From a virus (Duplodnaviria; Caudoviricetes), in IMG/VR virus record IMGVR_UViG_3300025706_000001, positions 64,868 through 128,867 of that record: a stretch of 64,000 nucleotides of DNA. One strand, 5' to 3'. The stretch's first letter is position 1. Every line of letters begins with the position of its first letter. Shown here one piece after another: positions 3,469-40,002 of the stretch. The position numbers were made by a program, and so were the translations under genes. Below the pieces are notes generated by a model. The model made no database searches, was not told where the DNA came from, and saw only the letters and a program-made list of their open reading frames with translations.

Positions 3469-3699
3469 TTATAGCGGCTTCTTGCCCGCTTTCCTACTCG
3501 GTTTGTTGGCTTCTGGCGGCACTGGCTTGACCAGGGAGTGTCGCAGATCGTGCCCAATGGCTTCACCCGTGTAGGCATCCCAGACCATCGCTTGGGCGTC
3601 GTCTGGATGTCGCCCGACGGCGGTGGTTCGGTCCACGCGAAAGATATCCACGATCCTGTCGTCACGGGCTAGGTATTTGCCGGGGTAATCAATTCGCAT
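3469..3699 (-). CDS. Small hypothetical phage protein
   Basis: PGKYLARDDRIVDI..., fits the operon and has an RBS. Confidence 0.5.
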   Translation of the reverse strand: MRIDYPGKYLARDDRIVDIFRVDRTTAVGRHPDDAQAMVWDAYTGEAIGHDLRHSLVKPVPPEANKPSRKAGKKPL

Positions 3700-10330: not shown

Positions 10331-11206
10331 CTACCATACTCCTCTATTGACTGCAGCATAGGGCACGCCGCCGAATCGCTTGATTGTCGGGTGGCCGGTG
10401 ACTATCGTCGGCTTGTAACTTAGCGGTGCGCGATGCCGGAACATCGCAGCGCCGCAGTCGTACAGATTGCGAATCTCGTTTGGCGTCAGACCACGAGACC
10501 ACGCAGTCCAGCCGGCTGAATAAACGTTGCTTAATCCGTTTCCACCGGTGGCACGGCAACCGATCGCAAGATTCCCTGCGATCCTCGGAGTAGTCGTGTA
10601 GCCATTTAGTTGCTCGATAGATTGGGCCACCGCGTCAACGTAAATGACCGTCGAACTCGCTGCGGCAGTCCAGGTGATGACGACGTGATGCCACGAATTA
10701 TTGAACAGCGAATTGGTCGCTGCTTCCGAAATTTGGATGTACCCCTGACCTGTATCGGAAGACGCATTGTACGGCCAGACGCCGAACCGTGCTCCGTAGT
10801 TGTACAGGCCAACCACACCAGCCAATTCGTTGCCCGACGAGTACAGGTCTGCGATTGAACCATCGGCGTTTGGGTCCGCGCAACGCAACCAGAAGGCTAC
10901 GGCGCCGCTTGTAGACTCTGCGATGGACGGTCCGCCGCTTACGATTCGCTGGTTCGCGGCAGTGACCTTAACGCATATCTCGCTGGGAACTCTCTCACAA
11001 TTCCCGCCGTCGCACGAGAGGAAAGAGGGGGCGTTTGTCAGTGCTCCATTTCGCTTGCCGGCTCCGATCTCCAGCAGTGTGCCAGCCGGCCCAACGTAGC
11101 CCGGCCAACACGCCACAAGCCCACGCCACAGTGACGGCGCAGTCGTGTCCTGACCGAGCGATAGCCCGGCACGGATGCAGTCAGAGCGTGTTGGCTTCCA
11201 TCGCAT
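10331..11206 (-). CDS. LamG/concanavalin A-like domain protein
   Basis: VAFWLR, NNSWHHVVITW, IYVDAV, LAIG, WSRGLTPNEIRNLY. Confidence 0.8.
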   Translation of the reverse strand: MRWKPTRSDCIRAGLSLGQDTTAPSLWRGLVACWPGYVGPAGTLLEIGAGKRNGALTNAPSFLSCDGGNCERVPSEICVKVTAANQRIVSGGPSIAESTSGAVAFWLRCADPNADGSIADLYSSGNELAGVVGLYNYGARFGVWPYNASSDTGQGYIQISEAATNSLFNNSWHHVVITWTAAASSTVIYVDAVAQSIEQLNGYTTTPRIAGNLAIGCRATGGNGLSNVYSAGWTAWSRGLTPNEIRNLYDCGAAMFRHRAPLSYKPTIVTGHPTIKRFGGVPYAAVNRGVW

Positions 11207-34929: not shown

Positions 34930-35289
34930 ATGAACGCGATCCTGATTGCCCTGGCCGTGATTTCGGCGGACTACCGCGACGGCTATTGGCGAAACGCAAC
35001 CCACTACAGCTATTTGGGTTACGCATTTCAACCCGTGTACGGACCTTGGAACGCCGCCGTGGCGGAGCTTCGTGTCCGTGGTCGATCAAGGTCGCGTGAC
35101 CTGATGTTGCCGACAAGCACAGCAAACGCATTGCGTGACTTGGATTTGCGACGAGCAGAGATATACGCCGCCTTGGTCGCCGCGCCAAAGATCGAAAAAG
35201 CCGAGTTGCGGCGGCAATGGCTGGTTGCTAGGCAGGAACTTGAACGAGCACGACTTCTTGCGTCTAAGGAGCTTTATCGTGGACGATGA
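34930..35289 (+). CDS. Hypothetical protein
   Basis: ORF with AAGGTG RBS. Confidence 0.5.
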   Translation: MNAILIALAVISADYRDGYWRNATHYSYLGYAFQPVYGPWNAAVAELRVRGRSRSRDLMLPTSTANALRDLDLRRAEIYAALVAAPKIEKAELRRQWLVARQELERARLLASKELYRGR

Positions 35290-36045
35290 AGAACTCAAGG
35301 AAGTGCGTCGGTTGCGGGCCTACGTTGAAGTTGCCATTGAAACCGTGGCGTTCATCGCAGTGGCAACTGTGGTTTCTTTTCTAATCTGCATGCGAGGCAA
35401 CTGATGGATGGAACACAGTTTGGGTACTGCGGCTTTGTGCCGCACACGCCCACGGAATTGGCGTTTGCCAGGGCGGAAGAGAACGATGACATGAACAAGC
35501 GAGTGGAGGCAATGCTCGACGAGGCTTGCCGGTACACTCCCGTGGCAAAAGATCAGTCTGAACCAATGAAAGGCGACCATGCCGCAAAGCAATCGCTACA
35601 TCGTACAACTGGAATTCCAACTATGGCTTGCACCGTGGCATGGAGATCCTGGTAGGACGTGCCGCATTGAGAACGCAAAATGGTTCTCGTCTAGGCAGCA
35701 AGCGAATAAGGCATTGGAAGCTGCAAGGCAGTACCGCCCATTTCCTGACGCATTTGTGGATGTTTTGCGGGAGACAGTGATTTGATGCTCGCAATCGTAC
35801 TTCTATCCATCGTCCTCCAATCGCACTTGGGGGACCATGTGGACCGCGACGGACGGATTCCGTCAGAAGATTCTGATAAATCAGACGTAGAACCTTTGGA
35901 ACGGATGGGTCGCTATCCGTCTTGCTACGCTTAGCTCGTGCGGCTTACGGCCGCGTCCCGTGCGAGGGCAAAAGCAACATGATACCTGTCTGAGGGCGGC
36001 TTCCGGTACTCCGCCAGTGTGATCGAAGACCGGGCTATGAATGGA

Positions 36046-36146
36046 GGATGCGTGAGCGGGCGCGGTGACCCGAACCTTGGGTATGCACGAGGTCGTGATT
36101 CAGGACAGATGTTCTCACGGGCCGGTTCGACTCCGGCGCGCATCCC
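36046..36146 (+). ncRNA. tRNA-like RNA with an 8/5 fold, long variable arm and non-canonical anticodon loop
   Basis: GGATGCGT/GCGCATCC acceptor; CGGG/CCCG D arm; ACCTTG/CGAGGT arm with an 8-nt loop; CGTGA/TCACG variable arm; GCCGG-TTCGACT-CCGGC T arm. Confidence 0.55.
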
Positions 36147-36359
36147 TGCCGAGCAGCCGTGAAAGCGGTGAAGGCAATTCCGGCCTGCGATTAGCGAAAA
36201 GCGCAGGTGTCGAGGGATCGTAAACCCTATATCGCCACCGGTAAGGCTTACAAACCGTGGAAGTGGAAACGCCATCCAGGAAACGTTAGGCGTGACAGCC
36301 GGAGAGACGGCGTGCGGATCGTGGCGGAATGTAGACGCCGTGGCATTGTGGTCAAACGT

Positions 36360-36475
36360 GAAGCGAAGTCATGCGCGATTATGACTTCGTGAGTCAGGGT
36401 TCGATTCCAGGCTTCCTTTAGGGGTTAGCGTAAATGTCACGCCTGACGAGGTGCGGGTTCGAGTCCCGCCGATTC
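36360..36475 (+). ncRNA. Two degenerate tRNA-like units retaining T-loops
   Basis: GGTTCGATTCC near 36398 preceded by a CGAAGTCAT/ATGACTTCG hairpin; GCGGG-TTCGAGT-CCCGC at 36453-36469. Confidence 0.4.
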
Positions 36476-36555
36476 GCAATGGGACAGTTGGCATCAAACA
36501 GGCTGCCGAAATGCAGGGCCAACTCAAGTCGGGAGTGGGTGGGAAAGCCGGCCCA

Positions 36556-36616
36556 GGGGACATGGTGTAATGGTTAGCATGTCGCGACGGTGCGGGTTCG
36601 ACTCCCGCTGTCTCCA
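36556..36616 (+). ncRNA. Anticodon-less tRNA-like RNA (61 nt)
   Basis: GGGGACA/TGTCTCC acceptor; TG-GTGT-AATGGTTA-GCAT D arm; only GTCGCGAC in place of the anticodon arm; GCGGG-TTCGACT-CCCGC T arm. Confidence 0.7.
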
Positions 36617-36651
36617 CTAGATCGAGGTTATCAAAAGGTCAGAGTGAACCA

Positions 36652-37017
36652 ATGACCCCAGACGAAGCAATCGCCATCGTGAAATCCAAGGCCAATGGCC
36701 GTACTCGCTACGAAGGCCAGGAGCCGTTCCTGGATGAAGTTCTGGTGGCGGAGATCGAGCGATTGCGCCATCGCACTGATGCCGTCACTCGGATTGTGGA
36801 CCAGTTAATCAGAATTGCTCGCTTGAATCGTGACGAGTTCGAGTTTTCGTTCACCGTGTCGCGTAAAGCGGCCGGGTTGTCATGGATATTCGAGTGCCGA
36901 GAAACAGCGGATCGCCACTGTTTTTGCATTGGATTAGGGCCGACGCCGGAAGACGCCGTGTCCAAGATCAACCTGAAGGAAGCGTGTGATTCGTGGGGGT
37001 ATGTGTACGTGGATTGA
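36652..37017 (+). CDS. Hypothetical protein
   Basis: GRTRYEGQEP..DEVLVAEIERLR. Confidence 0.55.
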   Translation: MTPDEAIAIVKSKANGRTRYEGQEPFLDEVLVAEIERLRHRTDAVTRIVDQLIRIARLNRDEFEFSFTVSRKAAGLSWIFECRETADRHCFCIGLGPTPEDAVSKINLKEACDSWGYVYVD

Positions 37018-37393
37018 TTTTGACAGGTGCGGCATGGCAAAGTTGATGATGTCTAGGGCGATTCACTTGGGACGGGTCCGGCACAGGCTGTTTCCGCCGT
37101 TTAAGTACAAAGCGGGTCGGGTTCCGAAGGGCTACAAGTGCGACGGATGTGGCGTTTACGGTGTTCGGTTGTACCGCCACTACCAAACGTTTCTTGAACA
37201 CCAAGTCCTTCGGTGTCGTTCGTGTGCCCTGGAAAGCCAGAAGCAGACCAAACCCGACTCTGACTACGAGCACAGCATCGGCTGGATGGTGGCTGCTGTT
37301 CCGACGGAAGACGGAACGACATACTGGGGTTACACTTCCGTTCCGCAGGAAGGCGTGGAATGGTGGGATCGACTGCCAAAATATCTGTTTTGA
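36986..37393 (+). CDS. Hypothetical zinc-binding phage protein; start uncertain
   Basis: Y.CDGCG..GVRLYR.YQ...LRC..CA...IGW.V.AVP..DG..YWGYTSVP. Confidence 0.55.
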   Translation: MIRGGMCTWIDFDRCGMAKLMMSRAIHLGRVRHRLFPPFKYKAGRVPKGYKCDGCGVYGVRLYRHYQTFLEHQVLRCRSCALESQKQTKPDSDYEHSIGWMVAAVPTEDGTTYWGYTSVPQEGVEWWDRLPKYLF

Positions 37394-37427
37394 CGCTGAA
37401 AAACCTGATTTTGCCGTTGACGCCCAA

Positions 37428-37500
37428 GTGCAAAAGGTAGGAAAAAGGTAGCGAAAGGTAGGAAAACGAAGAAAAGGTGTGCAAAAGGTAGGAAAAAGGT
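37428..37500 (+). repeat. Iteron-like A-rich repeats
   Basis: 22-bp direct repeat GTGCAAAAGGTAGGAAAAAGGT at 37428 and 37479; six AAAGGT copies. Confidence 0.75.
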
Positions 37501-38974
37501 GGCTACTAATCCTGAAAGTAACGCTTGCTCTTTTCTGGACTGGGATGATGCTTCAATTGGCCAGCTGTGCAAGAAAGCAGCTAAGATCCTCGGTGATAAA
37601 GATGAAACACTCGCCATTCAGGCGACCGTAGCGGCAATGCTGCTCATGGAGTCTATTGTCTGCGCCGGCGCGGATCAGCGGTCTTGGAAGTTCGAGGGAG
37701 TTACGATCCCTGAGTTGGGTGGTGACTTTGAGATCGTGGTTAGCCGGCTTCCGAAAAATCGTGAAGTTGACGTTGACAGCCGTTTTCAGCCTATGGTAAA
37801 TTGACGGGAGTGAACTGAACGAAAGGCGGCTGGTCGCGTGATGAAGCACGCGGCTGGCAATAAGGGCCATTGAGGAATGCGAACATGCTGACTACTATTC
37901 TGGTAGAGAGAACCGACGGCGGCTTGAGTTCGCATTCCACGTCGTCGTCTTTGCCGGTTGGGCTTCAATCCCTTCCGGCGTCTAACATGCACAGCCTCGA
38001 TTGTCGCCATAGGCGGTCTTCGGGGCTTTTTTCGTGCGCTGTGGCAATAGGCCAGAAAGAACCAATGAACGACAGCCTTAGATTGGCAAAAGGGAACGTG
38101 TGTGGCCGGTCGCCCTGGGGTGAGCCCCAAATGGATCGTGTCCAAATCCGGTATGCGTAGTTAGGCTCCAGCTGTTGACCCGACCAGGGTGTGATCTTGG
38201 GCGGCGAGGCTGATTCCGCGATGGCTACGCACGGCGGCGAGAGCGAAATCGTCGTTAGTCACCACCCGGTGCCGAAGGACCTCCCACAGGAGGTGATTGC
38301 GGGGCTTTGTACTGCGGTGCGGGTGGCATGGGCTGCGCGCACACTGTATTGAAATCTGAGTTTAATCGACGGTCTTTTTCAACGAAAGCGAGGCTCAAAT
38401 GTTGCGTGAAAAAAACTGCTTCCACTTGTTCGACGTGTACGCCAAACTCATCGCTGTGATGGAGTTCAACGGGGGTCGCCCACTTGATGACAGGCAAAGG
38501 ATGCTGGTCTGGCGATCGTGTGTTGGCAATAAGAGCCGTGGCAGCGTCACACGGCATCCTGGCGTTCGTCGGACTTCGCGCCACGTCACGGTTAGCGAGC
38601 TGGCCCTCGTCAAGTCGTGCAAAAGGAAGGTGCGATGGTGAACAAACGGCGGGGCAACGAGCATGGTGTGAAGGGCGCGGTGATAGACATTGAAGTGGTG
38701 TCTTCGCGCCTAATGGACATTGATGACGAGTTATAAGTGGCCATCTGTACCAGTTCCCACTGCCAAGTGAGACGCAAAGGCAAGACACTACTGGACATCT
38801 GGCCGACGACAGGCAAGTTCCGCGTGCATGACGCACCGCAAGGCAGTCCAGCAGTGGTAGGAATCGCGGATGATGTTTTGGATGTGGTAGAGTGGTTGCT
38901 GAGCAAAAGTTCAGGCTGACCCAATGGCAATAAGGGGTCGTGTGGTTCTGCCCTCAATCAAAGAAAGGTGACCC

Positions 38975-39337
38975 ATGTTGATTACGTTTTTGAGAATCGA
39001 AAAAGACGATTTAACCGAAGAAGAGTACATGGACCTGTGGAACCTGTCGAACTGCAAGGCAGATGAGCCGTGCTGGAGTTTCTTGGTTCGTGTCGATCTC
39101 CTTGAAGGATGGCTGAAAGATATCGAGACGGACAAAGAAAACGGACATGAGTATCCTGCCTCACGAGTTGCTATCCTCCGGCTCGTTGAGCGCGCTTATA
39201 GGGAGGACGTGAGGGCAATTTTTGTAGTCAACGATTCCTATTACAGCGCCTCCGGTTACGACGACGATACAGCGCTGTCTATAGAAGATTCCGGCTGTGA
39301 GGCGGATCAAAAGTACGCTGCCGGATGGAATAGCTGA
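38975..39337 (+). CDS. Acidic hypothetical protein
   Basis: Motif plus GAAAGGTG RBS upstream. Confidence 0.6.
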   Translation: MLITFLRIEKDDLTEEEYMDLWNLSNCKADEPCWSFLVRVDLLEGWLKDIETDKENGHEYPASRVAILRLVERAYREDVRAIFVVNDSYYSASGYDDDTALSIEDSGCEADQKYAAGWNS

Positions 39338-39363: not shown

Positions 39364-40002
39364 ATGTGTGACGCAATGGAAGCCTTCATGGCGGAAGGCA
39401 AGGGTGTTGGTTTGTTGACGGACGAGGAAACGCGAGAGTTGGCTCGTCGGGTACGGGCAGGTGATGCCGACGCGGTGAACGAGCTGGTCGAGCGCAATCG
39501 GCCGCTTGTGAAGAATCTAGCGAGGCGGGTTCTGGGTCCACGGTACAATGCCGACGACTTCCTGGACGACGTGCAGGATGGCATGGTGGCCCTGTGGCGG
39601 GCCGTGGAACGGTACGACCCGGACCACGAGGCCGGGGCGAAGTTCGGCAGCTACGCCACGCTGGTGATCGTCCGCAGACTTCTGGCAAAGAACCGTCGCA
39701 GGGTGGCTCGCAGGAAGGTGGTGGTCACAATGACGTTCTGCCGAGGCATTGATGATGACGGTGGAGAGCGTGATGCTCCGCTCGCGGAAGAGCCGGTGTG
39801 TGAAACCGAGGACCAGATTTTGGTCGATGTTTCAGACGCCGTGAACGACTTGCCTGATGACGAGCGCCGTCTTGTCCGTCAGCACTACTACGAAGGCCGA
39901 AACCTGGAAGACATCGGCCGCGAGATTGGCGTGTCGCACACGACGGCCTTGAAGCGTATTCGTCGTGGGGTGGCGAAGGTACGGCAGGCGGTGATGGCGT
40001 AG
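39364..40002 (+). CDS. Phage-encoded sigma70-family sigma factor
   Basis: LLT.EE..ELA.R...GD..A...LVE.N..LV...A (r1.2/2.1); D..Q.G..AL..AVERYDP...KF.SYA (r2); L...ER.....Y......LE.IG...GVS (r4). Confidence 0.9.
   Translation: MCDAMEAFMAEGKGVGLLTDEETRELARRVRAGDADAVNELVERNRPLVKNLARRVLGPRYNADDFLDDVQDGMVALWRAVERYDPDHEAGAKFGSYATLVIVRRLLAKNRRRVARRKVVVTMTFCRGIDDDGGERDAPLAEEPVCETEDQILVDVSDAVNDLPDDERRLVRQHYYEGRNLEDIGREIGVSHTTALKRIRRGVAKVRQAVMA

Follow-up and report, generated by a model that had tools for sequence, protein, structure and literature searches.

A tRNA-like gene without an anticodon arm in a wastewater phage, and similar non-decoding tRNA bodies in other phages

The locus and its genomic setting

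The stretch of DNA analysed here, hereafter the window, is a 64,000-nucleotide segment that makes up the second half (positions 64868-128867) of the 128,867-bp IMG/VR virus record IMGVR_UViG_3300025706_000001, which has direct terminal repeats and is rated 100% complete. Public sequencing runs that hold this stretch come from anaerobic digesters, sludge and wastewater in at least 13 studies from 2016 to 2025. Genes to the left of about 34.5 kb run on the minus strand and include an AAA ATPase of phrog_1499, an exonuclease VIII-like gene and a methyltransferase, while genes to the right run on the plus strand and include a sigma factor at 39364-40002. Between them lies an ORF-poor stretch of about 850 nt with aberrant tRNA-like units, which is closed by the 61-base element considered here. 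The features of this region are as follows:

36046..36145 (+), aberrant tRNA-like unit 1, with an 8/5 acceptor/T layout, a long variable arm and an 8-nt 'anticodon' loop
36154..36467 (+), abundant RNA that includes a weak tRNA-like unit 2 (about 36389-36478)
36556..36562 (+), acceptor stem of the element, 5' strand (GGGGACA)
36565..36580 (+), D arm, with stem GTGT/GCAT and loop AATGGTTA carrying G18 G19
36581..36591 (+), 11-nt linker GTCGCGACGGT in place of the anticodon arm and variable loop, starting with the palindrome GTCGCGAC
36592..36608 (+), T arm, with stem GCGGG/CCCGC and loop TTCGACT
36609..36616 (+), acceptor stem, 3' strand (TGTCTCC) and discriminator A73, followed by CTA with no encoded CCA
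36634..36640, right-hand breakpoint of the cassette
36652..37017 (+), first downstream gene (121 aa), with its start codon 36 nt after the element

Anatomy of the element

Direct reading of the sequence shows that the acceptor strands at 36556-36562 and 36609-36615 form 7/7 pairs, with a single G.U at 3:70, and are followed on the 5' side by U8 and G9. The D stem (36565-36568 with 36577-36580) has 4/4 pairs, two of them G.U, and the T stem (36592-36596 with 36604-36608) has 5/5 pairs, such that all three helices are perfect. The conserved elbow nucleotides, namely U8, A14, G18 G19 and the T-loop TTCGA, are present. In contrast, the 5-bp stem and 7-nt loop of an anticodon arm are absent, as only 11 nt lie between the D stem and the T stem. 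The Rfam tRNA model (RF00005) matches exactly 36556-36616 on the plus strand, over model positions 1-71, at 49.6 bits (E = 1.3e-07 for the 64-kb window) against a gathering score of 29, which is far beyond chance. However, ARAGORN at default settings finds no tRNA or tmRNA in the window or in the whole genome, and at relaxed settings it returns only noise. Nearest-neighbour folding places the tRNA-like fold (-23.3 kcal/mol with the acceptor stem enforced) almost level with a two-hairpin alternative (-23.9 kcal/mol), hence thermodynamics alone does not decide the fold.

The observation made in the initial annotation, that of a tRNA-like body with canonical acceptor, D and T arms but no anticodon arm, is thus confirmed. 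What that annotation did not note is that the acceptor end carries the alanine identity set (G1-C72, G2-C71, G3.U70, G4-C69 and A73), that the 3' half resembles tmRNA, and that the element belongs to a recurrent class. The Rfam tmRNA model (RF00023) aligns both ends of the element, including the T arm, while skipping its own middle, at 29.5 bits (E = 9.9e-10), which is below its cut-off of 47. Further, the element has a true 4-bp D stem, rather than the stemless D-loop analogue of tmRNA tRNA-like domains, and lacks their UUCGAC and GGAC motifs, the linker reading GTCGCGAC and then GGT. The possibility that the element and the upstream RNA together form a split or permuted tmRNA was also considered and rejected, as there is no tag-like reading frame, ARAGORN makes no tmRNA call and the gene order is not permuted.

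An exchangeable cassette with an abundant RNA

Unit 1 scores 35.8 bits on the tRNA-Sec model, below its cut-off of 47, and unit 2 scores 17.6 bits on the tRNA model at 36387-36472. Between unit 1 and the element, an RNA-library contig spans 36154-36467 at a depth of 340.8, as against 2-5 for its flanks in the same run, and a contig from a second study spans 36217-36441 at a depth of 45; in these two metatranscriptomes the flanks have a depth of 2-5 or nothing. This points to an abundant non-coding RNA of ~314 nt, 70-100 times deeper than its flanks, which belongs to no Rfam family and ends inside unit 2. No assembled RNA contig covers 36472-36795, the region that includes the element, which says nothing either way regarding its expression, given that libraries of this kind usually lose tRNA-sized RNAs.

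The downstream 121-aa protein has no Pfam or PHROG match, and the identical gene was called in 12 public contigs. It led to six further contigs from other samples, which are 100% identical over 35400-37100 and hence carry no variation from which selection could be measured. Two DNA runs show SNPs at 36499 and 36553 but none inside the element, which is likewise too little variation to test selection. Close relatives that encode a 98%-identical downstream protein, found in two contigs (L038 and L039; labels of this form denote sequences recovered in the searches), share DNA with the window only from about 36634 onward, and loose ends occur at 36640/36641 in one further run. In these relatives (L038 374-886 and L039 201-713, compared with window 36400-36640) the tRNA-like cassette is replaced by a small gene ending in a SEC-C-type CPCGSGRKFKKCC motif, and gene callers fuse the upstream frame to the 121-aa gene to give a 170-aa product. 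A third upstream variant exists. The tRNA-like cluster is therefore an exchangeable cassette, with its right end 18-24 nt beyond the element.

Similarity searches recovered no phage with a syntenic copy. A blastn search of 35000-39000 and of the element against 50,697 phage records gave no relative, only T-arm matches to actinophage tRNAs and tmRNAs. Relatives reached through the AAA ATPase (L005 and L006, 64-69% identity) have no tRNA-like element within 5-6 kb, and the sigma factor gave no relative. Searches of the phage for potential partners found no SmpB, CCA-adding enzyme or AlaX-type domain.

Armless tRNA-like elements in other phages

IMG/VR was therefore scanned with structure-like patterns. 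All these scans fix a D-arm or T-loop sequence, so that conservation of the fixed parts is by construction, and the counts given below are lower bounds. The first scans mostly caught ordinary tRNAs of gut phages and the 3' ends of full tmRNAs. Among the metagenome hits, L048 and L070 look like ordinary tRNA-Gly genes with lopsided partial deletions, as would be expected if such elements were decaying tRNA genes.

A pattern for an alanine-type acceptor with the T loop too close for an anticodon arm gave over 120 loci, of which 42 distinct elements of 55-65 nt remained after pairing of positions 5-7 with 66-68 was required. Most of these are tmRNA tRNA-like domains capped by a short hairpin that score 49-61 bits on the tmRNA model. 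They represent the 'TLD-only' form, which in the papers searched is reported for a single phage, DS6A (PMC4131195, PMC11915505). Such mini-tmRNAs of 62-67 nt, with no tag frame and P2 capped by a hairpin, are common in IMG/VR phages (e.g., L141 842-907, L196 3162-3228, L165 1646-1713, L161 1876-1942 and about 20 more loci; at least 25 forms overall). The remainder have a true D arm like the present element.

A pattern for this second kind gave 12 loci in unrelated phages of 31-67% G+C; in all, the scans recovered 11 alanine-type armless elements in addition to the present one. L153, from an unrelated phage of 39% G+C, has the same 61-nt layout and the same CGCGAC linker (GTACGCGAC), with compensatory changes in the acceptor and T stems. 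L239 has CTCGCGAG where the window has GTCGCGAC, while L258 and L265 share a GCGCAG linker but have diverged, compensated acceptor stems. The same D arm recurs in other armless elements. The same pattern hit only 6 times in 596 Gb of bacterial genomes. The stems covary: on an alignment of 17 alanine-type sequences, 99.5% of acceptor and T-stem cells are paired and 53 cells have changes on both sides, a result reached by 0 of 500 shuffles. While the acceptor was part of the filter, the T stem was not used for selection and is 100% paired. Two Bifidobacterium chromosomes (L375 1014-1081 and L376 7529-7596) carry a 68-nt alanine-type tRNA-like gene in which the anticodon loop is replaced by a GCAA tetraloop on a 5-bp stem. 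It lies between a fructose-bisphosphate aldolase gene and tRNA-Gly(CCC), not in a prophage, and may be a dedicated non-ribosomal alanine carrier.

A scan that left the acceptor free, with one common D arm and a D-stem-to-T-loop gap of 5-18 nt, gave at least 108 loci, comprising 78 distinct sequences in 48 families. Of these sequences, 66 have an intact acceptor stem, and the acceptor sequences are many. About 8 of 55 acceptor types are alanine-like, which is not clearly more than ancestry from tRNA-Ala would give, although G.U at 3:70 is the commonest G.U position. The class is therefore not tied to alanine, though alanine-type members are a visible share.

The distribution of gap lengths is bimodal. 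One peak lies at 11-12 nt, where the whole arm is gone, followed by a trough at 15-20 nt and a rise at 21-23 nt (the 19-23 counts being lower bounds), where the stem is kept but capped by 2-5 nt or fused without any loop. Random decay would not give this shape. Whether such look-alikes are full tRNAs with random decay had been named beforehand as a condition that would overturn the initial reading, and they are not, as they too lack the anticodon arm. This favors a functional non-decoding tRNA body.

Genomic contexts of the other elements

Of 103 elements, 20 lie within 300 nt of an ordinary tRNA, all on the same strand, whereas 77 of the 101 loci fetched have no tRNA at all in the stretch fetched. 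About half of the families have a same-strand gene start within 200 nt downstream, and about half do not. A 31-member gut-phage family, and independently L260 and L301, lie 13-30 nt upstream of terminase genes of different PHROG families. Overall, independent armless families (L299 3354-3415, L336 7084-7145, L260 7231-7294, L301 1899-1955) lie 13-30 nt upstream of terminase small-subunit genes of three PHROG families (509, 2606, 1482), and one lies upstream of a large-subunit gene (terL). L262 carries an armless alanine-type element (606-672) 82 nt upstream of a full phage tmRNA (754-1063, 83 bits). ARAGORN merges the two into a doubtful 'permuted tmRNA' call, and this 'tmRNA*' call, like a tRNA-Arg call in L300, looks like a forced fit. 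In L275, three armless paralogues with different linkers (2063-2106, 3567-3603 and 10712-10754) lie within 13 kb of a 180-kb phage. Additionally, a Hatchet ribozyme (L239 6403-6537, 73.4 bits, above its cut-off) and a twister-P1-like match (L196 1401-1458, 54.2 bits, below its cut-off) lie near armless or TLD-only elements in two phages.

Palindromic linkers

Four of 18 alanine-type linkers hold a perfect 8-nt palindrome, each with a shuffle probability of 0.04-0.07 (4% of trials for the linker in the window), and six more hold a 6-nt palindrome. The bodies of L266 (4537-4601) and L373 (148-212) are the same except for one base in the T stem, yet the 8-mer in the linker is replaced outright (AACATGTG versus CGTTAACG), both versions being self-complementary. 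This could be the footprint of a loop lost from a hairpin or a selected self-complementary site for pairing two molecules, and the present data do not separate the two.

Functional interpretation

The element is taken here to be a real RNA gene, in the sense of a tRNA body that cannot decode. The initial annotation proposed that it keeps the elbow recognized by RNase P/Z and other tRNA-binding factors and might be a processing signal or a decoy, and this interpretation is only partly supported: the first option fits the local context, whereas the second is weak. The reading preferred here, albeit tentatively, is that its main role is in cis as an RNase P/RNase Z processing signal. It retains exactly the parts that these enzymes measure, namely the 12-bp acceptor/T-stem stack and the D-loop/T-loop elbow. 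In this view, it would be cut out of a longer plus-strand transcript and so separate the stable upstream non-coding RNAs of the cassette from the downstream mRNA. The excised 61-mer would probably receive CCA and, given G3.U70 and A73, could be alanylated. The analysis itself establishes the anatomy, the model score, the context and the recurrence in other phages, while transcription, cleavage by RNase P and RNase Z, and the fate of the 61-mer, including its charging, are inferred.

This reading is favored by the position of the element between a very abundant non-coding RNA and the next gene at the edge of the cassette, and by the frequent placement of such elements directly before genes. Further, the many acceptor sequences suggest that a function independent of amino-acid identity fits best. 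However, the abundant RNA contig ends at about 36467, 89 nt before the supposed RNase P site, so its 3' end may be made without the element, and close relatives express the same downstream gene without the element, so it is not needed for that gene. Additionally, about half of the armless families have no gene start within 200 nt downstream, and processing alone does not explain the palindromic linkers.

An alternative, for which support is doubtful, is a trans-acting, alanine-accepting tRNA mimic. AlaRS charges acceptor/T-arm minihelices that carry G3.U70 without any anticodon (reviewed in PMC9976931), hence the RNA, if made and supplied with CCA, should be chargeable by the host AlaRS. It could then compete with tmRNA or tRNA-Ala for AlaRS, EF-Tu or SmpB, thereby damping trans-translation or giving tag-less rescue. 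The DS6A TLD-only molecule is reported to inhibit tmRNA, perhaps by titrating SmpB (PMC4131195, PMC11915505). The identity set, the tmRNA-like 3' half, the frequency of alanine-type mini RNAs in phages, the prevalence of G.U at 3:70 and the tmRNA neighbor in L262 are consistent with this. Against it, the element falls short of the tmRNA model and motifs, most armless elements are not alanine-type, and the phage has no SmpB, CCA-adding enzyme or AlaX-like gene. Moreover, a phage that carries both such an element and its own tmRNA (L262) argues against simple inhibition.

It is less likely, though it cannot be excluded for this single copy, that the element is a dying tRNA-Ala-like gene without function, which lost its anticodon loop and inner stem by deletion within the hairpin and has not yet been purged. 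The palindrome GTCGCGAC is what the outer stem halves would leave after loss of the loop, and close relatives of the phage lack the whole cassette. Yet this fits poorly with the three perfect helices, with the L153, L239 and L258/L265 relatives, with the bimodal gap lengths and with the greater number of loci in viral contigs than in bacterial genomes. Least likely is a decoy or sponge for host factors that attack or sense tRNA through the acceptor end or elbow, for example toxins that modify the tRNA 3' end. The element does retain these parts, and would be uncleavable by anticodon nucleases, and the class is enriched in phages. However, anticodon nucleases bind the anticodon stem-loop, so an armless RNA should not compete with their targets; a sponge must be very abundant, for which there is no RNA evidence; and no defence or counter-defence gene was found beside the element in the Pfam and PHROG annotation.

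A more far-reaching possibility, which is unlikely on present evidence but not ruled out, is that phages carry a large, undescribed class of purpose-built non-decoding tRNA bodies acting in trans. In these, the anticodon loop would have been removed cleanly, with the whole arm gone, the stem capped by 2-5 nt, or the stem halves fused into a loopless palindrome. The alanine-type members, including this one, would be charged by AlaRS, and the palindromic linker (GTCGCGAC here; CTCGCGAG, ACGCGCGT and CGTTAACG elsewhere) would pair two molecules into a twin-tRNA particle, much as HIV DIS loops or phi29 pRNA loops pair.

tRNA finders skip these genes, so that phage annotations and tRNA censuses miss them. 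If they are processing signals, they show that phages use tRNA punctuation, known from organelles and from MALAT1, to shape their transcripts, including at the head of packaging operons. If the alanine-type members are charged, they extend the single published case of a phage TLD-only tmRNA to a broader way of tapping AlaRS, EF-Tu or ribosome rescue. Either way, the clean and repeated removal of the anticodon loop gives a natural set of minimal tRNA bodies, which could be used to test what RNase P, RNase Z, the CCA-adding enzyme and AlaRS really need.

Comparison with known tRNA-like systems

A literature search found no paper on anticodon-arm-less tRNA-like genes in phages, and the nearest systems each share only part of the observed features. 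The element shares with canonical tRNA (RF00005), in particular tRNA-Ala, the 7-bp acceptor stem, U8, the D arm with G18 G19, the T arm with a TTCGA-type loop and the G3.U70/A73 identity set, and it scores above the cut-off of that family. It differs in having no anticodon arm, and hence no capacity to decode, in a D arm that is not the usual tRNA-Ala type, and in the lack of an encoded CCA. The TLD-only or CDS-less tmRNAs, i.e., that of mycobacteriophage DS6A and the ~65-bp plastid forms (PMC4131195, PMC11915505), likewise have an alanine-type acceptor and T arm, phage-borne in DS6A, a length of about 60-65 nt, no anticodon and no tag reading frame. However, true TLD-only forms score 49-61 bits on the tmRNA model, as against 29.5 bits here, and the present element has a D stem and lacks the UUCGAC...GGAC motifs and the P2 stub.

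The t-elements of plant mitochondria (PMC1920247) and the mascRNA/menRNA of MALAT1/NEAT1 (RF01684) are reduced tRNA-like bodies next to a stable RNA or mRNA, which in those systems are cut by RNase P/Z to make transcript ends, and mascRNA is also about 61 nt. These are eukaryotic or organellar systems, and mascRNA keeps a short anticodon-like stem; the RF01684 model gives the present element a non-significant 17.7 bits (E = 1.9) against a cut-off of 42.5, and cleavage here remains an inference. Finally, the polycistrons of irregular tRNAs and allo-tRNA-like sequences (Mukai et al. 2017, PMC5389517) are clusters of aberrant tRNA-like genes, some of them chargeable but not used in translation, and the cluster in the window similarly includes a Sec-like 8/5 unit. 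Those genes, however, keep their anticodon arms, are assigned to Acidobacteria and stand near toxin-antitoxin genes.
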